64,000 nt of DNA from Ostrea edulis (lineage: Eukaryota), in NCBI RefSeq assembly GCF_947568905.1, contig NC_079166.1:69626001-69690000 (forward strand), written 5' to 3'. The notes under the pieces were generated by a model. It saw nothing but the letters and a program-made list of their open reading frames with translations, was not told the DNA's origin and did no database searches. Positions 4,090-46,447 of the stretch are shown in pieces; within the stretch, counting starts at the first letter, position 1; every line of letters begins with the position of its first letter. The translations under genes were made by a program, and so were the position numbers.

Positions 4090-4383
4090 GAAACACGGTT
4101 ATACATGTACACTAATGTCAGAGTTTAATGTTCTCTGTGAAACACGGCTATACATGTACACTGATGTCAGAGTTTAATGTTCTCTGTGAAACACGGCTAT
4201 ACATGTACACTGATGTCAGAGTTTAATGTTCTCTGTGAAACACGGCTATACATGTACACTGATGTCAGAGTTTAATGTTCTCTGTGAAACACGGCTATAC
4301 ATGTACACTGATGTCAGAGTTTAATGTTCTCTGTGAAACACGGCTATACATGTACACTAATGTCAGAATTTAATGTTCTCTGC
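4090..4383. repeat. Minisatellite, 6 x 49 bp
   Basis: Unit gaaacacggctatacatgtacactgatgtcagagtttaatgttctctgt starts at 4090, 4139, 4188, 4237, 4286 and 4335. Confidence 0.95.
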
Positions 4384-5467
4384 GACTGCACACGGACTTT
4401 ATAAACTGCTTTCGGAAATGTAGATCAAAATATCCATAGATAAACGGATTTACTACGTGATTAATGATATAGGAGCGTCTCAAAATCACTAAGATATTCA
4501 ATAACACATCGTCCAGACGATACCAAAACTCGAATGGATCTTTGCTCGCAACAATTATTAAAATGAGTGCTGGAAGATAGGAAATGACGTAGAATACAAC
4601 AATGGTGATAAACATGGAGGTAAAGTTATGGCGCACGCGTCGTCTGTTTGAATTTTTCTCCTTGTATAGCGAGGTGTCCAGGACATTCTGAAAGTTATGT
4701 TTGTAGTTTGAATTGGCCTCATTTTCAGTTTTACTTGTGCTGTGTGGTTGCTCATCATCTGAGTTTGCCGCGTTTGTTGGTCCGCGTAATGTTCTCTTGC
4801 GTTTAGAGTTCCGAATGTTATGAAATCTTTTGTAAATGGTTATACCTATTGGAATATATAAAGCCACAGTGCAAGCCATGTTGATAAAACTTAACATCAA
4901 TTTCAAGAGAAAGTACAAACTGGAATATAGTCCAACACGCTCCCTCTTTACGCCACACAACGTAACGTTAATCTCCGTGTTTATCAAACTTACGGATCCC
5001 CGTGCTTGTCCCATAAAGTGCAGCAAAGGTAAAGACAGTATAATTGATCCCAAAACGGAACACATAAGACAAATTCTTCTTTTCGTTATTGTCATTTGTC
5101 TTCTATCTGGTCTGCACACTTTGAGGTATCTATAAACAGCTATCACAAGCAATATCAGAACAGATAGGCTTGACGTACACCAAGTGAAAAAGTACATCCA
5201 TTTACACAGGTCCTCCCATACGAATACCAGTCGATAAAAATTAACCAAAATGGGGAAAACACACCCGACCACACATGCTACCAAGTCCACTGCAGAAAGG
5301 AATGGGATGAAATACCTATCCGCGGTACGTGGCATGCGAAACGCATAAAAGTAGAGTGCCACTGCGTTTCCTGCCACTCCAAGAAACAGCAGAATTGATG
5401 TTAGCACTGTGTTGAAATACATTTTCTCACGGAATATCAAATTGTATTCTTCTGCTGTTGAATTCAT
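4370..5467 (-). CDS. Intronless class A (rhodopsin-like) GPCR, 365 aa
   Basis: Seven hydrophobic segments; GN in TM1, D in TM2 (SAVDL), LCK at TM3 start, IAVYRY (DRY variant), SYLP in TM6, NPFIY in TM7. Confidence 0.92.
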   Translation of the reverse strand: MNSTAEEYNLIFREKMYFNTVLTSILLFLGVAGNAVALYFYAFRMPRTADRYFIPFLSAVDLVACVVGCVFPILVNFYRLVFVWEDLCKWMYFFTWCTSSLSVLILLVIAVYRYLKVCRPDRRQMTITKRRICLMCSVLGSIILSLPLLHFMGQARGSVSLINTEINVTLCGVKRERVGLYSSLYFLLKLMLSFINMACTVALYIPIGITIYKRFHNIRNSKRKRTLRGPTNAANSDDEQPHSTSKTENEANSNYKHNFQNVLDTSLYKEKNSNRRRVRHNFTSMFITIVVFYVISYLPALILIIVASKDPFEFWYRLDDVLLNILVILRRSYIINHVVNPFIYGYFDLHFRKQFIKSVCSRREH

Positions 5468-6339: not shown

Positions 6340-6592
6340 TCAGCCCCCCCCCCCTCCCCTCCTTGAATTGAGCATATTGGAAATTGAACTGCTTGTAGAT
6401 GCTTGTATGTGAATATGGCTAATCATGACTGTGTTGGTTTTTTATAAGAATTTTAAAGATGCTTCCCTATCGATTTTCCAAATACGGGTAAAACATTGAT
6501 CCTCAATTGTGGCTTCATACCACTTCCGAGGGTCGAACAATCTTAAAACTCCATAATTTGGGGATGCCTGGACATTATCACTAATCATGGCT
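6340..6592 (+). repeat. Helentron-associated satellite-like repeat, left part (interrupted by the Maverick)
   Basis: Degenerate monomer ttttaaagat...taaaacattgatcctcaattgtggc resembles aaaactttgatcccctattgtggc beyond the right Maverick end; left boundary approximate. Confidence 0.5.
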
Positions 6593-7048: not shown

Positions 7049-7966
7049 TTACTTTCTGCTGAGTTTCTTCTTCTTTTTTGGCCGTTCTTCAGTAGGTGCG
7101 GTTGGATTCCACATCTCTAACGGTGTGTATTCTCTCTTCACAGGGGATTTTGAGCCAGGTACGGACCCAATCATCGCATCTATTTCCAGTTGTTCTTCTG
7201 GACACTCACTAATCCAGTGTCCTATTTTTCCGCATTTGAAGCAAGGATCCTTTTGTTTGGTTTTCTTGCTGGTCTGTTGAGAATCTGCTGACCTCGATTT
7301 CTTACTGGTCTGCGGATAATCTGTTTTCTGTGGGCAATCCGGCGACCAATGTCCTGTTTCTCCACACGTGTAGCACGGGTTAGCAGTGTAATCTGGAGTG
7401 TATTCCTTCCTAGGTTTTTTAGAAGTCAGCTCTTCCAGCTTCTTCAGTAGGATTATGGTATGATTTCCAATCTCATTACTCAGCACATTAATGCGGTTAA
7501 CGATCCCGTCTAGTGTCGTGGTAATGATGGCGAAATCGGTCCTGCTCATGGGGGAATCTTCTCCACCGAAGGGGAGTTTATCGTATAAGCCCATCTCCAG
7601 TCCCGTAGCATCCTGTGAATCGGGAAAATAGAAGCCTAATCCGGGGTCTGTCGGATTCTGGCTAGGGAGGTAATCCGAGGTTTGGGCTATCTTCTCTTGT
7701 CGAGCAACGTGGTCTGAAGGCGTGAGATTGAAGCTCGTGGTCTGGTTCGAGGTCTGGGCCATCTTCTTCTCTTCTCTTCTTCTTTGAGCAACGTAGTCTG
7801 GAGACGTGAGCAAGAAGTTCGAGGTCTTCCCCAGTTCAGTCTTCTGATCGTCACTCTTAGCTTTCTTCAGTTCAATGTAGTCTTTCTGTGGTCCCATCTG
7901 CTTCTGTACCAGCTGATCTATTTTCTTCTGAGCTTTGTCCACAAATTCTAGTTGTTTCTGAGCCAT
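7049..7966 (-). CDS. Double CCHC zinc-knuckle protein, 305 aa
   Basis: CYTCGETGHWSPDC and CFKCGKIGHWISEC fit CX2CX4HX4C; basic C-terminus RPKKKKKLSRK; TATA-like motif at 8019-8025 on the minus strand. Confidence 0.85.
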   Translation of the reverse strand: MAQKQLEFVDKAQKKIDQLVQKQMGPQKDYIELKKAKSDDQKTELGKTSNFLLTSPDYVAQRRREEKKMAQTSNQTTSFNLTPSDHVARQEKIAQTSDYLPSQNPTDPGLGFYFPDSQDATGLEMGLYDKLPFGGEDSPMSRTDFAIITTTLDGIVNRINVLSNEIGNHTIILLKKLEELTSKKPRKEYTPDYTANPCYTCGETGHWSPDCPQKTDYPQTSKKSRSADSQQTSKKTKQKDPCFKCGKIGHWISECPEEQLEIDAMIGSVPGSKSPVKREYTPLEMWNPTAPTEERPKKKKKLSRK

Positions 7967-8286: not shown

Positions 8287-8793
8287 TTAAAAATGGCCGG
8301 CTTCATACGCAGGTTCTTCTATATACACGTGTAAGTCATGATCTTCGGATATAATGTGTTGTACTAATTGTCGAGCTCTTCTCCCGGGGAAACGTATCTC
8401 TTCGACGGTTTCCCACATCCAGTGTGCATCCCAAAACAATACCCATACACTTCTCCGGTGGCGTGGTTTCTCCAGTCGAATAAATCCCGATACTTTTTGA
8501 GTGCCGTTCAATAACGTGTAAAACTGGTAAATCATGTACTGTATGAGGGGGGAATTTTTCAGGTACATGTCACTTAAACGCAGGTAAATATCCTCCACTG
8601 TTTCATGTGACCGCAATACATAGTCAAAACACCAATTTTTAGATCGGCCCCAGCGTAATGGATGGCGACATCTCTGTACTAAATTGTCCCAGATCTCCAT
8701 CTCGTCTACATAATCTTCCACTATGGTTAAATTCTCCACTGGTTGTATTCCCTGGCGGCGGCGTCTCGCTCTTAAAATTCTCCGTGTATCCAT
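8287..8793 (-). CDS. Protein with a CRESS-virus Rep-like (HUH fold) domain lacking catalytic residues, 168 aa
   Basis: RSKNWCFDY resembles RCR motif I (R..WCFT); YMIYQ...GTQKVSGFIRLEKPR resembles Y...Q.E...GTPHLQGY; FWDAHW resembles the AHWE segment; His of motif II and Tyr of motif III are absent. Confidence 0.6.
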   Translation of the reverse strand: MDTRRILRARRRRQGIQPVENLTIVEDYVDEMEIWDNLVQRCRHPLRWGRSKNWCFDYVLRSHETVEDIYLRLSDMYLKNSPLIQYMIYQFYTLLNGTQKVSGFIRLEKPRHRRSVWVLFWDAHWMWETVEEIRFPGRRARQLVQHIISEDHDLHVYIEEPAYEAGHF

Positions 8794-8828: not shown

Positions 8829-8902
8829 CAGCTGACGTACAGGTGTTTGATCACGTGGTGCAGGTGTTTGATCACGTGATGCATAACCTTTACCTATAAA
8901 TA
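8829..8902. promoter_or_regulatory. Divergent promoter with an E-box cluster and TATA box
   Basis: caggtgtttgatcacgtg at 8840-8857 and 8861-8878; CAGCTG and TGACGT upstream; TATAAATA at 8895-8902, 31 nt before the ATG at 8933. Confidence 0.6.
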
Positions 8903-8932
8903 CAGGTGTTTTCTGAACGTTCGTTATTTACT

Positions 8933-9265
8933 ATGGGCGGCAGTGCTACTACGAGAATAAATGGATATAGTTATGTACTACAATGTATGAACGTGGCCTT
9001 ACATAATCCTCACATTCAAAATGCTCGTCAATTTGTACAACAGATGTCACCGGAGGTCAGAAATGTACATAGTTTTCAACGGATTGCTGATTCATTAGCG
9101 GAGAATACCAATACGGGACGTTTACTCATGATTTATTTGTATGCTGAGGAATTGAAACAGAATCTTCCAGACCAGATGAGTGACATTGATCGGATCTCAC
9201 GCGATTGTCTACAAAAAGGATTCGTGGAACTGATTCGTATGAAAGGAATGGCTGCCCTGTTATAA
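8933..9265 (+). CDS. Bcl-2-like alpha-helical protein, paralog A (110 aa)
   Basis: SFQRIADSLAENTNTGRLLMIYLY resembles BH1 (F..V..ELF..G.NWGRIVA.F); N-terminal MGGSAT is compatible with myristoylation. Confidence 0.55.
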   Translation: MGGSATTRINGYSYVLQCMNVALHNPHIQNARQFVQQMSPEVRNVHSFQRIADSLAENTNTGRLLMIYLYAEELKQNLPDQMSDIDRISRDCLQKGFVELIRMKGMAALL

Positions 9266-9304
9266 AACAAGAACGTTTTGGATTTTTTTTTCATTTTGAT
9301 CATC

Positions 9305-9658
9305 ATGGCTGAATTAACCAACAACGTTCTTACCGCTGTATTACAGTATTTCAAGGACTACAAAGAATCGGTGAACAACGCTCGTAGCGCTGCATTACAG
9401 TGTATCAAGGACTGGAAAGAAGAACAGCCGTTGAGATATAAATTCGCCATGAAGTTGGTGATCTTTTGGGAATTTCCTATGACCTTATATGAATATTCCG
9501 GCGTTTGCAAGCATATAGCCGACAACCTGAACAGAGAGTCTGGATTGATCATGATTTATACCATGGAGCAAGAATTTAGACGACGGGAACCTGAGAAGAC
9601 TGGGGCGATTGTAGCGATTACCGATCACTGGTTGGAAAAGGTGTATAAAAAAACCTAA
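9305..9658 (+). CDS. Paralog B of the small helical (Bcl-2-like) family, 117 aa
   Basis: FPMTLYEY...GLIMIYTMEQEFRRREPEKTGAIVAITDHWLEKVY aligns with paralogs C and D. Confidence 0.7.
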   Translation: MAELTNNVLTAVLQYFKDYKESVNNARSAALQCIKDWKEEQPLRYKFAMKLVIFWEFPMTLYEYSGVCKHIADNLNRESGLIMIYTMEQEFRRREPEKTGAIVAITDHWLEKVYKKT

Positions 9659-9686
9659 ACGTTTTCTTTTCCTTTATTCGTGGAGG

Positions 9687-10034
9687 ATGGCCAGCAGTGA
9701 CAACATCGCAGAAAAAGCGCATAACCATGCATTAGAATGGGTCGAGAAAATGCAAGACGATACGGTGTTTCAAGCTGTTAAAAATTATCTGATATCGGGA
9801 GTGTTTCCAATGACTCTGGACGAATATACAGATCTACGGAACCGGATATACATCAATCTCTATAACGATGCGGGATTGATGTTAATTTATGTCCTGGGGG
9901 AGGAATTCAAGAAAAGCATGCCTGAAAAAACCGCCGAGATTGAAAGTATCACCAAGGACTGGCTTCGAGAAGTATACATAAAGTGTGAAGAACTTAATTC
10001 ATTTCATTTATTCCCGGAGGATGGCCAGCAGTGA
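9687..10034 (+). CDS. Paralog C of the small helical (Bcl-2-like) family, 115 aa
   Basis: FPMTLDEY...GLMLIYVLGEEFKKSMPEKTAEIESITKDWLREVY. Confidence 0.7.
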   Translation: MASSDNIAEKAHNHALEWVEKMQDDTVFQAVKNYLISGVFPMTLDEYTDLRNRIYINLYNDAGLMLIYVLGEEFKKSMPEKTAEIESITKDWLREVYIKCEELNSFHLFPEDGQQ

Positions 10035-10326
10035 CCACATCACAGAGAAAGCGATAGTTTATGTATTGGATTATCTCACAGACATTCATTCTTGGCAGAT
10101 TGAATTTGTGTTACACTATATGCGAGAAGAATTATTTCCCATCAGCTTAAAGGACTATCCATGTCTCTGTCAGTATTTGATCGAGAACCGGATCACCCCG
10201 CAAGCCTTAGTACTGATTCATTTAATGGGCCAGGAATTGAAACGAATTCGACCCACAGACAGAGCAGAAATCGAAAAAATCAGACTACGATGTCTTCGAG
10301 AGTTGTACGTCAAGTTAAACGTGTGA
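10021..10326 (+). CDS. Paralog D of the small helical (Bcl-2-like) family, 101 aa
   Basis: Starts ggaggATGGCCAGCAGTGAC like paralog C; FPISLKDY...ALVLIHLMGQELKRIRPTDRAEIEKIRLRCLRELY. Confidence 0.7.
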   Translation: MASSDHITEKAIVYVLDYLTDIHSWQIEFVLHYMREELFPISLKDYPCLCQYLIENRITPQALVLIHLMGQELKRIRPTDRAEIEKIRLRCLRELYVKLNV

Positions 10327-10508
10327 CTTTTAATCTGGACAATAATGAAGTGTATCTGTTACCCGAAGAAGACCGGACAAGTATCTGGATGACTGTAGCC
10401 GCTGATCGATATCGATTTCAACGCAGGATTCGAGAAATGGAAAAAATGTTGGACCCTATTTTAAAAAGACATGTGCATTGGTGTTGTGTGTGGGAGTTAT
10501 GTATTTGA
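10290..10508 (+). CDS. PPP1R15/GADD34/ICP34.5-like PP1 regulatory protein, 72 aa
   Basis: KRVTF (RVxF) followed by W...AADRYRFQRRIREMEKMLDPIL, the conserved C-terminal domain of GADD34/ICP34.5/DP71L; AATAAA at 10522-10527. Confidence 0.88.
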   Translation: MSSRVVRQVKRVTFNLDNNEVYLLPEEDRTSIWMTVAADRYRFQRRIREMEKMLDPILKRHVHWCCVWELCI

Positions 10509-11073
10509 AATATGTGACATGAATAAAATTGTTTACACGAAAGCTGTGTTTGGTTGAGTCTCTCAGAGAAGGGTTTATTTGTTGAGGAATCCAGAAAATC
10601 CTAAAGGTAGAGTGAAAATCGAATCAAATAAGGTGTTTTCTATCGAATAGACCTTATGAGATGTTTTTAGGGATGTACATGGTCGAGAAAATTTTTTTTA
10701 AAGAGGTGGTGAAGAAACATTGAACCTCGACTCGACCTCTTTAACAGCTGTTTCTTTGAAAACTATGCGACGTAGCAAAATAAAAATAAGTTTAACGCAT
10801 TCGCCGTCTCAGAATCTATCAGATTAAATCTACCTTGCACAGATATCGAATGTCTAGAAAAAGACAATGAGAAAAAACTCTCTACTCGAAAGCACAAATC
10901 CGCCATTTTGACGGCCACCATCTTGGCTTCGTCTCCGAAGCGAGGGATGTTTTCGAGGAGGTCCGCGCTTTCCTGATATATACCGGCGCACTCGTCAGTT
11001 CGCTTCACTGGTGATCCAGCACAGTTGTAGAAGATTTTTGAAGATTATTTTACAGAAGAAAGAAGAAAGAAGA

Positions 11074-11859
11074 ATGGCTGCAAGAAGAGACCCGCTCTAC
11101 AATTTCCAGACTTTGCCTGGTTTTCGGTACCGGCTGGTAGTGGTGGCTGAGGAACGGGTAGGGGAGAATTGGGTCGTGCGTTCTGAGAACGACCTGAGCA
11201 CCTTCTCCCCTTTCGACCAGAGTGGGGTCCGTGAGATCATCTGTCGGGTGCGGGCAGAGTATGAAGGGAGGGGACGCCGCCGCACCGCTCGAATCTCCAC
11301 GGCTACGAGACCGCGCCGACGGGCCCCACAGCCACCCTCACCACCACCACCTTACTCCCCGGCGACGCCTACAACACCACCACCAGCGATCCCATCAGCA
11401 CCAGTGGAATACAGCCCGGTGCCGATGAGCGACTCACCAGCGTCACCGGTGGAGTACTCGCCGAGGTCACCGTCCCCCGCACCACCTCCCAGCCCACGTC
11501 AGAGTCCGTCGCTGTTGGTGGCAGGCACGTCATCACCACCGAGACCAGCAGCCCCTGCAAGACCCCCACCACCTACCATCCGGTTTGCAGGGAGGACTCC
11601 ACCACCGAGACCAACCCACGCACCGGTGGCAACTCATCCCCCGAGGAACCACCCTATGACTGTCCCTGGCTGGGCAGATAGGGCGGTTCCTATCTGGTCT
11701 AAGTGCCCTGTCTGCTGGCAAGACAGGGTACACTCCGGTATCACGTGTAGGGGATGTGGGCAGCGCCCAGCTTGCTGCTCGTGCGTGGAAGAGTTACAGG
11801 AGCGGCGACACACCCGGGGACGGTGCCCGTTATGCCGGTTTACCGGAATCAGGGAATGA
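11074..11859 (+). CDS. Proline-rich protein with a PPxY motif and C-terminal RING-like finger (putative E3 ligase)
   Basis: PPPPY motif; C-terminal CPVC-x10-CRGC-x5-CCSC-x13-CPLC with eight potential Zn ligands; start taken at MAARRD. Confidence 0.75.
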   Translation: MAARRDPLYNFQTLPGFRYRLVVVAEERVGENWVVRSENDLSTFSPFDQSGVREIICRVRAEYEGRGRRRTARISTATRPRRRAPQPPSPPPPYSPATPTTPPPAIPSAPVEYSPVPMSDSPASPVEYSPRSPSPAPPPSPRQSPSLLVAGTSSPPRPAAPARPPPPTIRFAGRTPPPRPTHAPVATHPPRNHPMTVPGWADRAVPIWSKCPVCWQDRVHSGITCRGCGQRPACCSCVEELQERRHTRGRCPLCRFTGIRE

Positions 11860-12012: not shown

Positions 12013-12510
12013 TTACATTTTCTTGACAATATAAACATGTTTATGATACTGATAAGCAAAGTCACAAATCCATTGTCTATAATGAGTCCAATTGCCTCCG
12101 GCTAATCCACATCCAATACGATAAGGAAACGCTAAAGTCTGGTAAGACAAAGTGCCTAATTCCTGTAAACATTGTTGAAACCAAAGTTCACGTTGTTCGG
12201 GGGTATCGGCATACAAGGGTAAGCGTTGAGTGCCTCTCCCGTAATCCCATTGCGCTAACAAACAGATCACATCAGGATGAGTAGAATGAGGCATAATACA
12301 CACAGTACCCGGTATTCCTCGATCCGCTGCTATAGCTAAATTTCTCCGTCCTAAAGGTTGTCGGGTCGCATACAGATTAGCCCAAGGAAATCGGTCGGCA
12401 ATACGTTGACTTAATCCATGAGGTTTCACCGTTAAACAGTTACATTGTTGTACAATAGCATCCACCCAAGGTAGAGATAATACATCTCCTCGTAGATCCG
12501 TCACCGACAT
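12013..12510 (-). CDS. Macrodomain protein (TARG1/OARD1-like ADP-ribosyl hydrolase), 165 aa
   Basis: GDVL...DAIVQQCNC...GLSQRIADRFP N-terminal signature and LAFPYRIGCGLAGGNW C-terminal signature. Confidence 0.88.
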   Translation of the reverse strand: MSVTDLRGDVLSLPWVDAIVQQCNCLTVKPHGLSQRIADRFPWANLYATRQPLGRRNLAIAADRGIPGTVCIMPHSTHPDVICLLAQWDYGRGTQRLPLYADTPEQRELWFQQCLQELGTLSYQTLAFPYRIGCGLAGGNWTHYRQWICDFAYQYHKHVYIVKKM

Positions 12511-14107: not shown

Positions 14108-15511
14108 TTAGTAATCGATGCTGACTTCTCGTTGTTTGTTGATTTCTAGCAGATTGTCGAACACGGCATACACCACACAGTTTAAGGTCCTGGCCACGTT
14201 GGCGGCAAATTGCACTTCCACTCTCAAGTTCCCCGTCTGTATGAGATGAAATTTATCCGTCTGGGCTTCTTGATCTTTCGTGAAATCCACACACCAGAGG
14301 GTGTAACCGTTTTTATACTCTTCCAGGGTAATGTCCGGAGCCCAGTCCTGGCCTAATTTTCCCAAGCCTTTGTACAGACTCAAATACGATCTCAGGTACT
14401 GATCGTCGGTGAAATTAGGTTCCAAAGGTCGGGTTTCCATCATTTCTCCATTGATACTGATTTCTAATTTCTTGACTCTCTCATTTTGGAAATGAAAGGG
14501 GTTTCTGGTATTATCCCCATTAAAAGCCGCATTGTCCACAAAACCCAACACGATCAGTTTAGGCATCTGTCCTTGAAACAGATGATCGGTGATTTTAGAT
14601 TGGGTGCCACTAGGAATGGTGAAGGTTTTCACTTCCACTCGTCTCAATGGATATTTCGCCGTTTGAGTACTCAGTTGCTGATTGATGAGATTAATGATAC
14701 TCGGCACAGGTTTGACTTTCCTCACCCACAAGATCATACTTTGAATGACCACTTTCCCACTACTCCCGGCATCGGTCATCATGTAGAACTGGGGTCGAGC
14801 GCGATTGAATCTGAGACGGACATCCAAACCATTAGGGAGACATTTCTCTTGCTCAAACAAATCCAGATGTAATCGATCCATCAACACGATCTCCTTACTG
14901 TCTGTAATCTTCTCGTGACGTTTTCTCAACCCTACATTCTTGGAATCATCCGGATACTCGGGAGTCGGGATGACGGCCGCGATGTTGACTTTGTTAGACA
15001 CTACTGCAAATTCCACAGGAGTTTGAGCCAGAGCTTCTAATTTGACCTCATCCATATGTCCTGCCGTATCTTTTTCCCACAAGCTACAGGCTCTCATCTG
15101 GGTTTCCAGAGTCTTGGGTGCATAAGACAGCAATTTCTCCAGATACGCTTTGTAGGGATAAGTATCCGTCCCCGGGGTAATGACTTTTCCATTGAGACTG
15201 ACATCGATTTCACTGAACAAGGAATGGAGAATGTTATTCACGGGGGTGGAGGTCGAATGGCCTCCTGCGAGATTCGTTCCATTGGCTTTCGTGAATTTAC
15301 AGACCATCTGGAGATAAGTTTGGGATAAATCCAGATATTCATCTCCTTGTCCTTTGATTTCAAATTCAATCGGAGCCGTATCCGAGTTGAGGGTACTGGA
15401 AATGGGATAATATTCCATCCATTTCGAATCTTCTAAAGTGACGTTGGTCGGGGGCACTTTAAACAGTTCTAAACTGCTGGTGCCACAAGCGCAAGATTCT
15501 CGGTGCATCAT
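14108..15511 (-). CDS. Double jelly-roll major capsid protein (PY/hexon-like), 467 aa
   Basis: LELF.VPPT, PIEFEI...[43 protein letters not shown] and G.LRVEVQF motifs typical of Maverick MCP. Confidence 0.93.
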
Positions 15512-15590: not shown

Positions 15591-16283
15591 TCAGTCGAAA
15601 ATATCCAGAGAGCGTTTTGGCTTACCCCTTTTCACTAGCTTCCTACCTCCCTTCCTAGATCGCTCCCTAGGTTGCTTCCTAGGTCTCTTATGAGGCCCTC
15701 CCCGAGCTAAGATACGTTGTTTTCTTTTAACAAATCCTTTTCCTTCCTGTATTCCCACCTGTTTTCCCAACTGTTTTCTTTTGAGGGTCGTGGTTCCAGG
15801 CTTCCTGAGTATTCCTGTGCGTGCTTTTCTTCCTCGTTTGGATGGGGCTTTTCGAGACCTTCGCCTACGGGCATACCCTGCTGTCTCTTTCAGGGCTTGG
15901 GTACCGTGTGTCTTGAGAGCGTCTTTGAGTGATCGTTTATTATCTAACACATCCATCCCTGTTTTAGCAGCAGCCTTTAAGGCACTTTTAGCCCCCGATT
16001 TGAGTAAATCGGTGAAAAATCCTTTTCCCTTCTGCTTTTCAGATTCTGGATCATATTCTTCTGTTGGATGGCTTCTACGTCGTCTCCTCTGATAAGAACG
16101 ATAAGGGCGGTCGTAATCATAATATCTCTCTTGATAGACAGGACGCTGTTGTTGTTGTTGCTGTTGTGTGGGGGCTCCACCTAATAATCCGCTGATCAGG
16201 GGACCCGCCACTTTGCTAGCTATTCCCAACAGGGCTCCAAGCCCGTGACCCTGCTGCCGTATTAAACCTTTATGGTAGTGCAT
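15591..16283 (-). CDS. Basic virion core-like protein with QxGxG motifs, 230 aa
   Basis: QQGHGLG, QKGKGFF and QEGKGFV motifs; amphipathic helix; Arg/Lys-rich C-terminus; adjacent to MCP. Confidence 0.75.
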   Translation of the reverse strand: MHYHKGLIRQQGHGLGALLGIASKVAGPLISGLLGGAPTQQQQQQQRPVYQERYYDYDRPYRSYQRRRRRSHPTEEYDPESEKQKGKGFFTDLLKSGAKSALKAAAKTGMDVLDNKRSLKDALKTHGTQALKETAGYARRRRSRKAPSKRGRKARTGILRKPGTTTLKRKQLGKQVGIQEGKGFVKRKQRILARGGPHKRPRKQPRERSRKGGRKLVKRGKPKRSLDIFD

Positions 16284-16456: not shown

Positions 16457-17455
16457 TCAATACACTTTGCGGAAATGAAGTTTGACTAAGGAGCGCCCAT
16501 TTAAAAACCCCATAGGACGCCCTAAAGAATTCATGATGTGTACCTCAATGGTATCGAAATATTTCTTACTCAGTTTCAAATATTCGGCTCGAATCGGTTC
16601 CCAACGGGCTTGTTGTCGATCGTCGTATTGACCCGTACAGGGGACGACTCTCAATAATTTCAATTTGTTGGTGCCCACCACTTGAGGATCCACAATGTCA
16701 CAATACACATACATGGCTTTCAGATTGTCGTAGACATCCATGGTCGTGTTCCCCAAGTAATTCACGTTGATCCATTTCGTCATGGTTTCATCGCCCAGGA
16801 TCATTTTGTCACTATCCAGACCTAGCTTGTACGCTAAGGGCGTAGGGAAACGAATGCACATGGGGGTGGTTCTCAGTGCTTTCCCATTAAACTGATACTC
16901 GACACGATCGTACTCGGGGTGATACACTAAGATCTGGTTGTTCCCCTCGTCGTTAGGATTCCCTAACTCGCTCCATACTTTCCACAGGGTTCTCCTTAAG
17001 GCTGCGTTGATTTCATTGATTAACGCCAAAGGTTGTGTATAAGCTCCGGGTCGGAAGTGAATGCGAATGATATCGAAGGGAAATAAACTATCCCCTCCCG
17101 CAAAGAGATGGGACCATGGCGTCAGATCCCAGGGGACCACCACCTCACACCTGGCCATCGTGACTTTACCCATATTCTCTGTCTTAAATCTTTCCCATTT
17201 ATAAGTGTTGGGATCTTGGACATGTTTCGTATACGGATCTGGAATGAGAACGTCCACATAAGCCTCGCTATCCGATACGTTTTGTAAGTTGACCGAGTAC
17301 ATCATTTCGGTCAATCCGACTTCCCATGCTCCACCCGTTAAGTCCATGGTGTGTGGCAATAACGTTTTAAATTGAGCAGTCGTATTCGTCGGAAACGATT
17401 CCATCGACCCATCACTCAACAGAGTCATGTAAAACCCTTCTCCTCCTCCAGCCAT
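16457..17455 (-). CDS. Minor capsid protein (penton, PX), 332 aa
   Basis: FYMTLLSD.S...FP.NT...F...L....L.G.WEVGL N-terminus and YVYCDIVDPQVVG....LLRVVP C-terminus. Confidence 0.93.
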   Translation of the reverse strand: MAGGGEGFYMTLLSDGSMESFPTNTTAQFKTLLPHTMDLTGGAWEVGLTEMMYSVNLQNVSDSEAYVDVLIPDPYTKHVQDPNTYKWERFKTENMGKVTMARCEVVVPWDLTPWSHLFAGGDSLFPFDIIRIHFRPGAYTQPLALINEINAALRRTLWKVWSELGNPNDEGNNQILVYHPEYDRVEYQFNGKALRTTPMCIRFPTPLAYKLGLDSDKMILGDETMTKWINVNYLGNTTMDVYDNLKAMYVYCDIVDPQVVGTNKLKLLRVVPCTGQYDDRQQARWEPIRAEYLKLSKKYFDTIEVHIMNSLGRPMGFLNGRSLVKLHFRKVY

Positions 17456-22079: not shown

Positions 22080-22610
22080 TTAACAAATAAAAATACGTAC
22101 AGCTTGCTCAACACTATGTCTACAAATAGGACATTGTTTCAGTCCCGTAGCACATATAGCACAAGTACATAAATGACCACAAGGTAAAAAAGCTATTCTC
22201 AAGTCTCTTTCTAAACACAGATGACATTTCTCCGTCGTCGTAGCCGGATTCTCCACACTGTCTACAGACAAGTCTCCCCAATCCTTCCCTGTGTCTCGCA
22301 TTCGGCTAACGGCGTCGAACATTTGGCGTACCCATTGTTTGCCCTTATTACACTTCAGGTAAGGACAGTGAGGATACCAATAAGCATGTTGTATCCAAGG
22401 ATTGTCGACAGCTCCCCAATGGTGAAGTCCAAAGTTGCAATAAAAACAGCACGTGCTATCCCCGTACCCTTTGTAAAAGTATCCCGCTTCTGCAATGGTA
22501 GGTAATAGCTTCTGCAAGTGTTCGGAAGCATTTTCAAACGACGCTACTCGATCTGACAGTAGAGCATAACGTGGTGTACCCGGGTTATGTAGTGATTCGT
22601 AGTCCGTCAT
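22080..22610 (-). CDS. iap: Inhibitor of apoptosis protein (single BIR + RING), 176 aa
   Basis: BIR: R..SF...AEAGYFY.G..D...CFYC...L..W...DNPW.QHA.W.P.C; RING: C..C...R...FLPCGH...C..CA..L..CPICR. Confidence 0.95.
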   Translation of the reverse strand: MTDYESLHNPGTPRYALLSDRVASFENASEHLQKLLPTIAEAGYFYKGYGDSTCCFYCNFGLHHWGAVDNPWIQHAYWYPHCPYLKCNKGKQWVRQMFDAVSRMRDTGKDWGDLSVDSVENPATTTEKCHLCLERDLRIAFLPCGHLCTCAICATGLKQCPICRHSVEQAVRIFIC

Positions 22611-27055: not shown

Positions 27056-27061
27056 ATGGCT

Positions 27062-29871: not shown

Positions 29872-31071
29872 TCAAAACGTTGAACGCAACTGTCCTTTTC
29901 TACAACAAATCAACAAATTAATAAGTTCACGTCGGAAAGACAAGTCAAAATAACTATAAATGAATGGATTAACAATGTTATTCAATACGAAAGCTCTCTG
30001 GAGAAATACGAGGCCGTTTAACTCTACTGCACTCCTTGAAAACCAGAACTGTGCGGGGTTGCTTCCTGGCAGCATAACCAATATAAGTGTTGGCACGTAA
30101 GCTAGAACATAAATTATGATAATCATAGCAAACATGAGTGTAAAGTTGTGTCTGGCTTGTTTCCGTCTGGTATTCTTTCTTCGGTTTAGGGAAGATACTC
30201 GGGGTTTGATTTCAGTTTCTGATGGTTTAGCACCCGTTGCACATTTCGTCGAAATCTCATTATCACTCATATCAACAGAGGCCTCTGACATCACGGACGT
30301 TTCATTATCGGGTACATTTACACACAGCCTTTGATGTGTTGGCGGCGATGCAACACTCCCAGAAATTGTTGATAAGACCGTAGAACTTGATCTTTGTTTT
30401 GAATTTTGTTGGATTATTCGGAACCTGCGATATATACTCACACCTACGGGGATGTACAACCCACAGGTGACCATCATGTTCAGCAGAGCTAGGAAAATTT
30501 CAAAACCGAAATAAGCATATTGTAACTGGTTCATCATTCCGTCACTAAAACGCAATGTACAAAGCGTGGCGTTTAGAGCTTGTCCCTTAAAAACGTACGG
30601 AACGTTCCGTCCGCCCAGAAAATATAACATGGGTAGTGACGTCACGAAGGCTATGCAAACCATGACAATTAAAGCTCTTCTTTTCCTTACAACAGTAAGT
30701 TGCGGACTCGTGGGACGGCATATCATGAGGTGACGATTTAAGGCGATTAGGAGGATAAGAAATCCGGAAACGGAAGTCGTAGTCCAGGTAAAGAAATATC
30801 CGACCTTACAAAACGTATCAAGTTGGTAATTAGCTCTGTTGAAATTCGACACGATACCAAGAATGATCCCAGCCAGGCAGGCAAAAATGTCGGAGACAGC
30901 AAGCATGGGAATGAAGTATCTTTCCTCTGTCTTTTTCATTTTGCGGGTATAAATGTATAAAACACATGAATTTCCTGTAAGTCCGAGAAAAAGATATACA
31001 GATAAAAGTCCGGTGTTAAAATGGAGGTGTTGTGTTACCTCCTTGTTAAGGTCCTCGGCTGTATAATTCAT
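29872..31071 (-). CDS. Intronless class A GPCR, paralog of 4370-5467, 399 aa
   Basis: Same motif pattern (RYFIP.L...D, FCK..YFFTW, IALNRH, AYVP, NPFIYSYFD). Confidence 0.92.
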   Translation of the reverse strand: MNYTAEDLNKEVTQHLHFNTGLLSVYLFLGLTGNSCVLYIYTRKMKKTEERYFIPMLAVSDIFACLAGIILGIVSNFNRANYQLDTFCKVGYFFTWTTTSVSGFLILLIALNRHLMICRPTSPQLTVVRKRRALIVMVCIAFVTSLPMLYFLGGRNVPYVFKGQALNATLCTLRFSDGMMNQLQYAYFGFEIFLALLNMMVTCGLYIPVGVSIYRRFRIIQQNSKQRSSSTVLSTISGSVASPPTHQRLCVNVPDNETSVMSEASVDMSDNEISTKCATGAKPSETEIKPRVSSLNRRKNTRRKQARHNFTLMFAMIIIIYVLAYVPTLILVMLPGSNPAQFWFSRSAVELNGLVFLQRAFVLNNIVNPFIYSYFDLSFRRELINLLICCRKGQLRSTF

Positions 31072-33115
31072 GACTAACTTTTAATCATCAGTCAGTGTAG
31101 ATTTCATATAATAACGCGGAATTAATTCTCTTGGTAATTACATGTAATGAATATCGACTCAATATTATGCTCTTAAAAGGATTTCACTAACGGGAAGGAT
31201 GAGCTATATTTGGTTATTACTACTCGTACATGATGTTATTGTTCAATAATGCTTAAATAATTCGTTTCAAAATTATGTGTAAATTAAAAAAAAAACTGGT
31301 GTGGATCATCTATGAAATATAAATACATGTATATGTGAAAAGTCATCTTAGCGTATCGAAAAATGCCAATCATTGTTACATTTTGTACCGATAAAATTGC
31401 AATGATACTGAAAATCATGCAATTATCAATAACAAACAACGGATACTCTTTAAAAACTTTGATTAAGACTAGTCAATAATTAAAAATATTCTGATCATTG
31501 CTTTAATTCATTTTCAAGTGAGTGTCCAAACTAAATGAACTGTTGACCGCTAATGACAACCGAATGCTATGACTTCACTTTTCCCCCTCTAAAAATTGAA
31601 GAAAAAAATACCAACCAAATTTTGAATGGTTTATCACACACTGGGCATTTTTTTCTCTCAAAATATTGGAACCTTGTTGAAAATGTCTCGTGAGATTACA
31701 ATTACGCGCACCTGTACATCCTACTGCGTATTATCACAAGTTTGAGATCATTTTTGAACTTTACACACACTGAAACTGATTTAATGTACATATATAAATT
31801 AGTGAATAGAATGATTTGACTGAAGACATTCACCAACTTTCAATTAACGCATTTGACATTTCAAACAGAAATTAGTCTGTTTTATGTTTACAACTGAAAG
31901 CGATATCATGGTTTATAATTAATATGACATGCACTTTTTAATAAGTACATGTCTGTGTTCGACAATATTCGTTAATCTGTCTTTTATCATTCGACCACAT
32001 TCCATGGAAAATAATCAATCGTAAACCTTAATTTACGAACACCACTGTGATTGGAAAGCCGGAAATGACATGGTGTGTCTTCATTTTGACTTATCGTGTT
32101 CCCGTTGTTGACCTTTGGAAAAACACATAATAGGATTTAACTAGTCGAAGTTAAATCGGTTTATCTAAGCTAAATATCAATATTAATCATTAATCTGTAT
32201 CACCGGGATAATTTCCCGCTGCCAGCTATTCTCTTTTCGGGTATAAGTGAGGTAATAAATTACCTCATGACCACCGTCGCCTTTATTTTTAATAAAAATG
32301 GGGGTAATAGTTACTGGCCTCGGCAAGCGCCTAATTATTGTCTTGAGCTGGGTTACAATGTGCCCAATAAAATCAAAGTTCAAATTGCTAATAATGTCCT
32401 GATGTTCTGAGCGAACGCTCTAACCTCTAGACCACCGCGGCGGTTGGATGTTGAATGTGACGTCATGGGGTTATAATAAATGTGTGTGTGCAGCATACTG
32501 TTATCATTGAAACTGGTTCAATCCTTTATAATGTAACGATTAAGTTCTTTATTAGTTAGAATAATCTAACCTTGTCTCGTAACACGACCTCACCACAGTT
32601 AGAATGCCCCCCCCCCCTACCCGTAATGGGAATACTTCTAGTATAACGGTCCCCAAAATATGGCGCTATATATATACGATCACGTTAGCGATAAGTAAAA
32701 TCGCCAAAACGGAAAAAAATCACAAAAATAAATCCAAATTTGAATTCCTTGCTAAAAATGAAGTTTTTAAAATCCGAAATGAAAAATAATGCAAGAAGAC
32801 GTAATTTTTTTGTTCCAAAAATGGAATCCATTGTTGAGAAAAATCGTCGAGTGCCCTTTATTATACGTAATTTTCATGAATATTTGTATGATACGACGTC
32901 ACTGGTGTTGATGTAAAGAAACTGAACAGCTGATTTGCGATGAAATGCCCCTAATTTAAAACTGAAAGCATTGTTTTTATTTGTGCTATTGTAAAAGAGA
33001 TGATTCACTGGTTAATAGGATTATCTGTTTTGATAAATTTGGACTGCAATTTGTGGCAGCCGTGACAACGGGAAATTTGGATTAAGAAAGGATTCGTCAT
33101 ATTCAAGCGACAAAT

Positions 33116-42583: not shown

Positions 42584-45500
42584 CTAAACATACCAAACTT
42601 GCGCAGTTTGTTCACCTACAACCCATTCCCCATATCTATCTGGATGTTTTCGTACGCGATCTGAGCGACGGATTTGTGGACTGAATGTAGACCGGCTCGA
42701 TTCACTATTTCTTGACGGATTATTTATATTTACGTTCGAATAATCTGCAAAAGAGTTGGTGTTAGAGCTATTCCGGAGTTCAACAGAAGAAAATGTTTCT
42801 TGCTGTAGTGAGGGTCTACTATCATCAACACTAAAAGTATAGATTGTCCCTATATCACCTGATCCCATATGTTCACTTGAACTATTGAGACAAGTATTGT
42901 GATTAACACCTGAAGTGTTTAAGACATTTCTATCCGTATATGATACGGGTTTGGACACAAATATAATTTGATCCTTCTCCGAATCGCTTGATTCTGAGTC
43001 GCTATCGGTACTGATACTCCCGCTTTCTTGTTTCTTCTCTGTTGTATTCCTAGTGTACTTACTTCGCTTGGAAACAGTTTGGGGAATTTCTGAAGCGCAA
43101 TCATCATCTGAAAGATACATAAAGGGTAATAATAAATTTCTATGTAAATATCTAGATTGACCCTTGCCAGATGATCTTTGAACTCTGTACACAGGAATAT
43201 CGTCATTTGGAATGTCCAAGACGACATAAGGATCTTTTTCCCATTTGTCTGATAGTTTACTTTTCCCTTTCTTTGCTAAAAGTCTAACTAAGACACGATC
43301 ACCAATCTCTAATTTGGAATAACGTACTTTGTTGTCATAGTAATGCTTATGCCTGGAATTATTTTTCTCTATGTTTTTCTTGGCAACATTATATGCAAAC
43401 TTTAGTCTTTTCTTAAGTTTTTCTGCATAATTTGCACGACTAGTTGGCTTTGATGTATCCGAGTCATCTAAATTTAAAAATGCGTCGACAGCAAGTCTAG
43501 GATGCCACCCAAACATTAAATAATGAGGTGAAAATCCTGTGGTGTCTTGCCTTGTTGCATTATATGCATGTACCAAAGGAAGTATACATGATTTCCAGTC
43601 TTCCTTCTTGTAATTTTCTAAAGTTCCCAACATTTTTATCAAGGTTTGATTGAATCGTTCCACAAGACCATTACCCATTGGATGATAAGGTGTAGTTCGA
43701 CTCTTACTGACACCAGCAATTTTACATAATTCTCTGATGATTTTACTTTCAAAATTTCTACCTTGATCGGAATGTAGTCTCTCAGGAAAACTATAATGAC
43801 AAATGAAATTTTCGAATAGAGCCTTTGCTGTTGTCTTAGCAAGTTGGTTGCGTGTAGGAACTGCCATAGCAAATCTAGTAAAATGGTCAGTAATGACTAA
43901 AACATTTTCAAAACCACCTTTTGACCTTTCTAGAGTCAAAAAATCAATACATAATATCTCTAATGGTTTTGTGCTTTGAATGTTTACCAGATTAGCTCTA
44001 GGTATCTCTGATGTTTTTCTCCTCACACATCTACCACATGTTTCAACTCTATCCTTGATTTCCTTATCCATTCCACTCCAATAAAATCGCTGTTTCGCTA
44101 ACCATAAAGTTTTATCCCTACCTTGATGACCTGCATCATTGTGTATTCCCTTGAAAGCTGTTTCTCTGAACTGGAAAGGTAAGACTAACTGCCTAGCATT
44201 TGAGCTTTCTACTAAAGTGTTTCTGTATAGAATACCTTTTCTTATTTCAAAATCCTTCCAATTTTTCAAATAATCTCTAACTTCATAAGTTTCTTTCTGT
44301 AATTCTTTACCACTAGGTCTTAAACCTGATTTAAGTAAATCTAAAACTCTGTTGATGGAATAATCCTTCCTTTGCTCCTCTATCCAGTCTATGTTTCGAA
44401 AATCATCTTGTGATATATCATCCTTGAAATTTTCAAGTTCTGCACTCTGGGATAAAACAATACATTCTGCGAGTGGTAGTTCCTCCTTCTCAACTAAAAC
44501 AGCAGAAGTAAAAGCTTTTATAACATCAGGAAAGACTTCAGTAGATCTGCGAGATAACCCATCAGCATCTCTATTAGATTTACCAGTTTTGTAAATCAAT
44601 TTGAAATTGTAATTGGAAAGGGATGCCAACCACCTATGCGACATTGCATCTAGTTTGGCTGTGGTTGTAACATAAGTTAATGGGTTATTATCTGTATAGA
44701 CTTGGAAAGTATTTCCATACAGATAATCATGGAATTTATCACACAATGCCCATTTTAAACACAAAAATTCTAACTTGTGGGCAGGGTAATTACATTCGCT
44801 TGGTCGCAAACTTCTACTGGCATACGCAATTACTCTGTCTTTAACGCCTTGATTTTGGTATAAAACAGCACCAAGACCATCTTTGGATGCATCTATATTG
44901 ACAATAAAAGGTTTGGTAAAGTCTGAAAACGCTAATATTGGGGGTGAAGTAAGTTTTTCTATCAAACTATTGAATGCTTGTTGTTCTTTCTTACCCCATA
45001 TCCATGGTACTTTCTTTCTCTTAGACGATTTCGCCTTTTTATTTGTTGGATGTCCTACCAAGAGATTGTTCAAGGGTTTTACTAACCTTGCATAGTCTTT
45101 GACAAACCTCCTGTAGTACCCAGTAAATCCTAGAAAGGAACGTAATGATTTAATATTTTTAGGGACTGGCCAGGTTTTCAAAGCCGATATCTTTTCAGGA
45201 TCTGTTTGAATACCATTTTCTGAGACAACATGTCCCAAATATTTTACTTCCGATTTGAAAAACTCGCACTTGGAAGGTTTTAATTTCAAATTATGTTTTT
45301 CTAATCTAGTGAATACACCCTCTAATCTCTCTAAATGTTCTTCAAATGTAGATGAAAAGACAAGAATGTCATCCAAAAATATTAAACACTCTTTAAGATT
45401 CATTTCACCCATACAAGTCTCCATTAATCGCTGAAACGTAGCGGGTGCATTGGTTAATCCAAAAGCCATGCGATTACATTCATAAAATCCTAAAGGACCT

Positions 45501-46447
45501 AATGAAAAAGCTGTTTTATGCTTATCTTCCTCTTTGATCTCAACTTGCCAATAACCAGATCGAAGATCTAACTTTGAAAAATACTTACTTCCCAAAAGAG
45601 TATCTATTGTCTCATCCACTCTAGGAAGATTGTAAGCATCTTTAATGGTTCTGTTATTTAGTTTTCGCAAGTCTATACAAAACCTAAGAGAACCGTCAGC
45701 TTTTCTAGCAAGTACCACATTCGAACAATATGGACTTTTAGATTCTCTAATTGCTCCGGCCTCTAGCATTTCTTTAAGATGTTGCCTTACCTCTTCATAC
45801 ATTGCAGGTGGTATTCTCCTGTATGGTTCTTTGAACGGTGTATGATCTGACAACCTTATTTCGTGTTCTACTAGATCGGTTCTTCCAATGTCAATAAAGG
45901 ACGTCGAAAAAATATGTTTCCACCTATTCAAGAAATCATAACTCTTTTCTACCTGATCCTCAGACAAATTAGTTTCATTAACCTTGACTCCTAATTCTAC
46001 TAAATTGACATTTGAGATATCTTGACTTGCAATTGTCTTTGATGGTTCCCAAGAATCAACAACTTTGGCGGTACTCAACTTGCATATTACAGACTTTGGT
46101 TGAATCTTAATAGCTTGAGGCGACATATTGCATACCCGCACGGGAACTCTTGAGGTTTTACCATTTTTAATAGACACAACCCTAGGACAGACTAAAAGAC
46201 TTTGGTTTGGAAATGTATCTGTTTGCTCTGTAATAGCTGTATCTACATTATTGGCATTCACTGATTTTACTATCCCCGACAGGGTTTTAACCTCATGTGG
46301 TCCAATCGTAATAGAATATCTGTTAGTTGTTTTGACAGGAATCCCACTAGCACTTAAGTTTGAAAAAGCTAATTCCCACTCATCTGGTACCTCTAAATCC
46401 TCATATTGTGAGAACTCTGCATATTTTGATAATATTAGTGCCCACAA
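42584..46447 (-). CDS. pol: pol (RT, RNase H, integrase) of the inner Gypsy; open frame but disconnected from protease by a frameshift
   Basis: LRFCIDLRKLN, FSKLDLRSGYWQ, MAFGLTNAPATFQR and IFLDDILV; DASKDGLGAVL; H...GHQG...C..C; IDFL, SDQGRNFES and GNGLVERFNQTL. Confidence 0.9.
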   Translation of the reverse strand: MWALILSKYAEFSQYEDLEVPDEWELAFSNLSASGIPVKTTNRYSITIGPHEVKTLSGIVKSVNANNVDTAITEQTDTFPNQSLLVCPRVVSIKNGKTSRVPVRVCNMSPQAIKIQPKSVICKLSTAKVVDSWEPSKTIASQDISNVNLVELGVKVNETNLSEDQVEKSYDFLNRWKHIFSTSFIDIGRTDLVEHEIRLSDHTPFKEPYRRIPPAMYEEVRQHLKEMLEAGAIRESKSPYCSNVVLARKADGSLRFCIDLRKLNNRTIKDAYNLPRVDETIDTLLGSKYFSKLDLRSGYWQVEIKEEDKHKTAFSLGPLGFYECNRMAFGLTNAPATFQRLMETCMGEMNLKECLIFLDDILVFSSTFEEHLERLEGVFTRLEKHNLKLKPSKCEFFKSEVKYLGHVVSENGIQTDPEKISALKTWPVPKNIKSLRSFLGFTGYYRRFVKDYARLVKPLNNLLVGHPTNKKAKSSKRKKVPWIWGKKEQQAFNSLIEKLTSPPILAFSDFTKPFIVNIDASKDGLGAVLYQNQGVKDRVIAYASRSLRPSECNYPAHKLEFLCLKWALCDKFHDYLYGNTFQVYTDNNPLTYVTTTAKLDAMSHRWLASLSNYNFKLIYKTGKSNRDADGLSRRSTEVFPDVIKAFTSAVLVEKEELPLAECIVLSQSAELENFKDDISQDDFRNIDWIEEQRKDYSINRVLDLLKSGLRPSGKELQKETYEVRDYLKNWKDFEIRKGILYRNTLVESSNARQLVLPFQFRETAFKGIHNDAGHQGRDKTLWLAKQRFYWSGMDKEIKDRVETCGRCVRRKTSEIPRANLVNIQSTKPLEILCIDFLTLERSKGGFENVLVITDHFTRFAMAVPTRNQLAKTTAKALFENFICHYSFPERLHSDQGRNFESKIIRELCKIAGVSKSRTTPYHPMGNGLVERFNQTLIKMLGTLENYKKEDWKSCILPLVHAYNATRQDTTGFSPHYLMFGWHPRLAVDAFLNLDDSDTSKPTSRANYAEKLKKRLKFAYNVAKKNIEKNNSRHKHYYDNKVRYSKLEIGDRVLVRLLAKKGKSKLSDKWEKDPYVVLDIPNDDIPVYRVQRSSGKGQSRYLHRNLLLPFMYLSDDDCASEIPQTVSKRSKYTRNTTEKKQESGSISTDSDSESSDSEKDQIIFVSKPVSYTDRNVLNTSGVNHNTCLNSSSEHMGSGDIGTIYTFSVDDSRPSLQQETFSSVELRNSSNTNSFADYSNVNINNPSRNSESSRSTFSPQIRRSDRVRKHPDRYGEWVVGEQTAQVWYV

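Follow-up and report, generated by a model that had tools for sequence, protein, structure and literature searches.

Polintons are kin to the adenoviruses, and it is still debated whether those of animals are infectious viruses or no more than transposons carrying capsid genes. Viral Bcl-2 proteins that have been characterised use the Gly-Arg pair of Bcl-2 homology region 1 (BH1) to grip an aspartate of the BH3 helix. Among the poxvirus Bcl-2 proteins, the BH3 groove has been kept in some members and lost in others (PMC4358236, PMC2494871), with A52, B14 and A49 using the Bcl-2 scaffold on other host proteins (PMC2494871, PMC4358236). ORFV125 has a degenerate BH1 and binds BH3 via its Gly-Arg (PMC7719400), the adenovirus protein E1B-19K is described as a Bcl-2-like inhibitor (PMC11209288), and homologues of Bcl2 and IAP were observed in adintoviruses by Starrett et al. 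(PMC8502044, section 3.2). Here we describe an array of four adjacent Bcl-2-like genes, A to D, carried by an intact Polinton in a 64,000-nucleotide stretch of the Ostrea edulis genome (assembly GCF_947568905.1, contig NC_079166.1, positions 69,626,001 to 69,690,000, forward strand; hereafter the window, whose numbering is used throughout). The four genes are mutual paralogues with intact frames, and they are very probably of Bcl-2 ancestry.

6593 to 27055: intact Polinton/Maverick of the adintovirus type, 20,463 bp, with terminal inverted repeats, target-site duplication and Pfam matches
8933 to 9265, + strand: paralogue A, 110 residues, uninterrupted open reading frame (ORF); predicted A-type five-helix Bcl-2-like domain with a BH1-like NTGR (motif NxGR) at residues 60–63
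9305 to 9658, + strand: paralogue B, 117 residues, uninterrupted ORF, without NxGR
9687 to 10034, + strand: paralogue C, 115 residues, uninterrupted ORF, without NxGR; best structural match Bcl-xL/Bcl-2
10021 to 10326, + strand: paralogue D, 101 residues, uninterrupted ORF, without NxGR; overlaps C by 14 nucleotides and gene E by 37 nucleotides

Kinship of the paralogues and the element that carries them

The four ORFs lie side by side on the + strand with the coordinates and sizes first given for them, and the mutual paralogy proposed in the initial annotation was borne out, the local alignment score exceeding all 2000 shuffles in six of six pairs. Pairwise identities range from 12/40 to 35/98, with B, C and D closer to one another (29/92 to 35/98) than to A (12/40 to 17/46). 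No further copy was found in the window by tblastn at E ≤ 1. The sequence pattern originally described as common to all four is so only in part: FP occurs in three (A is without it) and L++IY in three (D has IH), while the relaxed core L..I[YH]....E.....P.....I..I....L is present in every paralogue. Identity at codon positions 1 and 2 (0.45–0.72) was greater than at position 3 (0.25–0.43) in all six pairs, which is modest evidence of constraint on A–D, as a protein-guided alignment favours such a result.

Word-based searches yielded 1, 8 and 14 matches, and an exhaustive profile search 27 relatives at E ≤ 0.001. None is informatively named, and where contig data exist the contigs are short. 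Ten bacterial or archaeal matches to a pattern of the A type, the only type so searched, gave no confirmed relative. The alignment leaves out P0023 and P0032, which are long and match only in short, scattered stretches, the partial, chimeric or two-repeat P0022, P0024, P0028, P0030 and P0034, and the fragments P0043–P0046; the fragments P0017, P0021, P0027, P0031 and P0035 were excluded from the tree. The A type formed eight of the 30 tree rows (support 100/99) and the remainder a looser B/C/D type; the tree is midpoint-rooted with long branches, and no duplication order was drawn from it. Profiles of the two types are homologous (probability 97.9, E 3e-13, 92 columns) and align nearly gap-free.

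The two types are also separated by the NxGR motif. As first noticed, NTGR is found in A and is missing from B, C and D; across the relatives, NxGR is present in 11 of 14 A-type sequences and in none of 23 others, the three A-type sequences without it being one divergent protein and two pieces that do not contain the region. Of 11 aligned A-type rows, 10 retain both the Gly and the Arg, and the residue before them takes five states. In all 18 B/C/D-type rows the residue aligned with A Arg63 is Gly, Ala, Ser, Pro or Glu, and that aligned with A Asn60 is Lys or Arg in 11 of the 18. The possible myristoylation site noted in A does fit an N-myristoylation pattern; as a conserved family trait it was rejected, the pattern occurring in three of eight full-length A types (two of them near-identical) and in none of 22 others.

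That the array lies within a Polinton was confirmed by the terminal inverted repeats, the target-site duplication and the core genes. The repeats are perfect for 287 nucleotides from the ends, suggesting a recent insertion, and the duplication is an identical 6 bp at 6587–6592 and 27056–27061. Pfam matches were obtained for pPolB (PF03175, E 3e-57), the integrase (rve, E 1.6e-11, with a chromodomain), the packaging ATPase (Pox_A32, E 5.4e-7) and the adenain protease (Peptidase_C5, E 2.4e-4). These core genes are on the − strand and the array is on the + strand.

Within B, the first helix is duplicated in tandem (9320–9367 and 9374–9421, + strand; 18 codons, 83% identical), as it is in the relatives P0006–P0008, and this could restore an extra N-terminal helix to the protein. 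The start regions of C (9664–9719) and D (9998–10053), on the + strand, are 88% identical as against 35% for the proteins, suggesting either recent conversion or strong constraint on promoter and start. The relative P0034 (195 residues) contains two B/C/D-type cores in one chain, possibly a fused tandem.

Predicted fold and relation to Bcl-2

The structures of A and C, which are 15–17% identical, were modelled separately. Each is predicted to have five helices, in the same layout around a central helix α5, and each placed Bcl-2 chains at the top of its matches in two programs. The helical character initially claimed for all four proteins is thus upheld for A and C, predicted to be all-helical, the models covering these two of the four. 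The NTGR of A falls at the start of the central helix (residues 61–77), where BH1 lies, and a Gly-Arg at the start of α5 is found in A only. C matches the pro-survival proteins Bcl-xL and Bcl-2 better than A does. The comparison with poxviral proteins suggested at the outset found F1L, M11L, ORFV125 and A46 among the matches of the A and C models; N1, A52, B14 and K7 were not among the 50 structural matches listed for the two, and may lie lower down.

Stricter tests of Bcl-2 membership gave a different answer, and the Bcl-2-like, poxvirus-style expansion first put forward is supported in part. The full Bcl-2 fold has seven to eight helices; both models have five, with one N-terminal helix absent, and their last long helix may represent a fusion of α6 and α7. 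None of the four window proteins reached the Pfam cut-off for Bcl-2 (PF00452, 31.4 bits), the best relatives scoring 13.4–13.5 bits, and Pfam and PDB-sequence searches returned nothing significant for Bcl-2. Likewise, Atlas gave no usable feature match for A or P0009, and Bcl-2 was in none of the ten structure rows for P0009. No C-terminal membrane anchor was found in A–D (C-terminal hydropathy maximum −0.11 to 0.87; maximum over any 19 residues 0.73–0.94), and the BH3 signature LxxxGD was absent from the first 45 residues of all four. One side of the central helix carries an unusual amount of charge, with nearly invariant Glu72, Glu73 and Lys75, in keeping with the exposed face of a soluble protein.

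Since helices α2–α5 make up the BH3 groove (PMC4358236), it is of consequence which N-terminal helix was lost. On the helix boundaries taken for the templates, most alignments to monomeric ones start at helix 1 of the template, which would mean that the α3 region is missing, and those to α1-swapped ones such as F1L and ORFV125 (PMC7719400) run from α2 onward. C favours loss of α3 over loss of α1 by about 1 Z unit (8.9 against 7.9), and A ties. An aromatic-aliphatic pair in helix 1 recalls BH4, and L-x3-G, half of the BH3 signature, ends helix 2 in 7 of 23 B/C/D types; contrary to these hints, a Pfam match sets the end of helix 2 on α3. Complex prediction of an A homodimer gave no answer (score 0.01, mark 0.32; alignment unused) and was counted neither for nor against.

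Neighbouring genes and putative transcription signals

10290 to 10508, + strand: gene E, DP71L/ICP34.5/GADD34-like, 72 residues (longer frame from 10161); overlaps the end of D
22080 to 22610, − strand: IAP with a single BIR and a RING, directly after pPolB (Pfam BIR E 2.8e-15, RING E 1.8e-12)
8895 to 8929, + strand: TATA-like box (8895) and initiator-like site (8924) of A
9261 to 9296, + strand: TATA/initiator-like promoter of B (9261 and 9291), overlapping the stop of A
9644 to 9679, + strand: TATA/initiator-like promoter of C (9644 and 9674), within the 3′ end of B
9975 to 10009, + strand: variant TATA/initiator-like promoter of D, within C
10522 to 10527, + strand: first AATAAA past the start of A, after gene E; likely common poly(A) signal for A–E
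14108 to 15511 and 16457 to 17455: candidates for a further Polinton/Maverick hallmark, picked solely for their size and position and without a pertinent Pfam match

Gene E is a predicted PP1-recruiting protein of the DP71L/ICP34.5/GADD34 kind. It matches Pfam PP1c_bdg above the cut-off (E 1.3e-6), and the best of its seven PDB matches is DP71L (71 residues, E 2.3e-5) of African swine fever virus (ASFV), followed by CReP. Both an RVxF motif and, downstream of it, the eIF2α-binding region (W..A.DR.RF..RI) were found. DP71L recruits PP1, whereupon eIF2α is dephosphorylated (PMC10807198). Among eight relatives tested for fusion of D to E, one clear and one marginal case were seen; in the clear one, P0019, a D-type domain is joined to an E-like domain (score 140 against a shuffle maximum of 55), which means that the linkage is not unique to the present copy. 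A −1 frameshift leading from D into E was considered and rejected: an in-phase shifty-type heptamer lies at 10314–10320 (+ strand), but the RNA downstream is no more stably folded than shuffled versions of it (z +1.0 to +1.4), heptamers of this kind are found at 47 of 5666 codon positions, or about 4% per five codons, and an ATG in good context is available to E itself.

A TATA-like box lies 38–46 nucleotides upstream of the ATG of each paralogue, with an initiator-like hexamer 29–30 nucleotides past the box. Of the 14 TATA-like sites on the Polinton's + strand, only these four are paired in this way, and the layout precedes 7 of 723 ATGs, figures that apply to patterns chosen after the sequence had been seen, the D variant being added once noticed. 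As the first AATAAA lies past gene E, the transcripts are likely to be nested and to share a single 3′ end, A–E probably using this signal in common, and A–D are presumably expressed. The boxes at 9261–9266, 9644–9649 and 9975–9982 (+ strand) form the last codons of the upstream paralogue, from which the unit of duplication would be a gene plus the next promoter. Upstream of the TATA-like box of A, between divergent genes, are two tandem 18-nucleotide units with E-box-like hexamers (8835–8880).

Elsewhere in the Polinton, 11074–11859 (+ strand, that of the cassette) encodes a 261-residue protein, rich in proline and bearing a RING-like finger at its C terminus (Pfam E 0.015), possibly a ubiquitin ligase. 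A 165-residue ORF at 12013–12510 (− strand) resembles by eye a macrodomain (ADP-ribose eraser) and has no Pfam match; if the likeness is true it would be a fourth anti-defence gene. At the left end are a 305-residue protein with two CCHC zinc knuckles (7049–7966, − strand) and a 168-residue ORF with a weak Viral_Rep match (8287–8793, − strand; E 0.009). A basic 230-residue ORF with amphipathic segments (15591–16283, − strand) looks by eye like the cupiennin-like virion proteins (PMC8502044). The Polinton is flanked by two rhodopsin-type receptor ORFs, similar to each other and each in a single frame, at 4370–5467 (− strand, by Pfam) and 29872–31080 (− strand, by eye), which by themselves mark the host as an animal; a Gypsy-like pol ORF is found at 42584–46447.

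Proposed function and comparison with known systems

The reading we prefer, to which we give an even chance, is that the array is a host-defence cassette in which A binds BH3 and B–D bind other defence proteins. A Bcl-2-family gene would have been captured by the Polinton and pared to a soluble five-helix domain, consisting of two N-terminal helices and an α4–α5–α6/7 core without membrane tail, and the pared gene would have been duplicated in tandem with its own promoter for each copy. The BH1 Gly-Arg of A would most likely engage the BH3 helix of a Bax/Bak-like host protein on a groove that has been remodelled, blocking mitochondrial apoptosis, and the scaffold of B, C and D, which are without Gly-Arg, has most likely been retargeted to other host defence proteins, like that of A52, B14 and A49. 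Gene E would recruit PP1 so that translation stays on, as a second arm of the defence, and the IAP would block caspases as a further arm.

All four proteins might instead still act in the death pathway, B–D binding different BH3 proteins by a relocated arginine or tuning A. Tanapox 16L and sheeppox SPPV14 do make the BH3 salt bridge with other arginines (PMC7719400), most B/C/D-type rows have Lys or Arg in the Asn60 column (11 of 18), C is closer than A to pro-survival Bcl-xL/Bcl-2, and an IAP lies on the same Polinton. We nevertheless think this unlikely, given that the Arg63 column is Gly, Ala, Ser, Pro or Glu in all 18 such rows and that the best C alignments start at template helix 1, which would place the loss at α3, as in the groove-less A52 and B14 (PMC2494871). 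It is also conceivable that the groove was destroyed before the duplications and that A too serves only as a scaffold, directed at innate signalling or at other targets, as A49, A52 and B14 provide a precedent (PMC4358236, PMC2494871); the five helices shared in one layout by A and C, the nearly gap-free alignment between types, the lack of a membrane anchor and the absence of LxxxGD from all four are consistent with it. The retention of Gly and Arg in 10 of 11 A-type rows, while the preceding residue varies among five states, makes this quite improbable in our judgement.

An unrelated five-helix bundle, resembling Bcl-2 by chance or convergence, would leave the paralogy standing, and we hold it to be very improbable, since models of two proteins only 15–17% identical each rank Bcl-2 chains top in two programs and NxGR occupies the BH1 position at the start of the central helix. 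Least credible of all are pro-death or membrane-active Bax/Bak-like cores that had lost an inhibitory first helix and served cell exit: they would not be expected to have a charged central helix, low hydropathy and no BH3 signature, and the neighbouring IAP and gene E are pro-survival. The array, which most likely works as a poxvirus-style scaffold set, falls short of strict Bcl-2 membership in Pfam score, helix count and anchor, and we class it as a truncated Bcl-2-like variant; its importance is tempered by the single Bcl2 and IAP genes already published in such elements, and function is here read from sequence and models.

Four Bcl-2-like genes, each with a promoter of its own, and a mimic that would rescue translation take up about 1.6 kb of a 20-kb genome, as would be expected if infected cells that die or shut off translation are selected against, and the presence of a Bcl-2-like array beside a host stress-response mimic suggests that such elements actively counter host defences. 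A literature search, which reached few subscription journals, found no report of a Bcl-2-like paralogue array or of a GADD34 mimic in a Polinton. We propose tentatively, at somewhat less than an even chance, that the array belongs to an undescribed minimal five-helix Bcl-2 family, invisible to sequence searches, that diversified, separately from the poxviruses, within the Polintons of animals to give an A type that binds BH3 and several retargeted types, and that with the GADD34 mimic and the IAP it makes up a three-armed module. If true, this would be strong genomic evidence that these 20-kb elements pass through a true infectious cycle while the host's immunity presses on them; the working core of the Bcl-2 fold would also prove to be smaller, a host helix perhaps replacing the missing one. 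The family would serve as a set of natural deletions with which to learn what helices BH3 binding by a Bcl-2 protein requires, and would add to the poxviruses another example of duplication followed by retargeting.

Among known systems, the adintovirus Bcl2 homologues share element class and Bcl2/IAP cargo with the array. One of them, A0A5H3CWZ2 of the Branchiostoma lancelet adintovirus, ranked fourth in BFVD for model A (197 residues, TM score 0.50); it is about twice as long and recognised by sequence, whereas the array comprises four five-helix paralogues of 101–117 residues with 11% identity and no significant sequence signal. The supplement text of PMC8502044 has three single 'Bcl' labels and no 'GADD', its maps being images in which an array may be present. 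The cellular family (Bcl-xL, Bcl-2, Mcl-1, BAK) has up to eight helices against five here, and the array, unlike it, is without a BH3 signature, a clear BH2, a transmembrane tail or introns. Gene E, like the short form of ASFV DP71L, herpes simplex virus ICP34.5 and GADD34/CReP, combines RVxF with an eIF2α-binding region in 70–72 residues (PMC10807198), but lies within a Polinton, overlaps a Bcl-2-like gene and has a D-type fusion counterpart in P0019. E1B-19K is likewise a Bcl-2-like inhibitor in a similarly sized virus with a protein-primed polymerase; it is a single gene, and a review describes it as without a solved structure (PMC11209288). In the poxvirus set (F1 and M11 with N1, as against A46, A49, A52, B14 and K7), as is proposed for the array, one captured gene was duplicated and diverged; there 11 genes are scattered in a 200-gene genome, whereas here four stand adjacent in a 20-kb element and have fewer helices, with C nearer to cellular Bcl-xL than to the poxviral chains.
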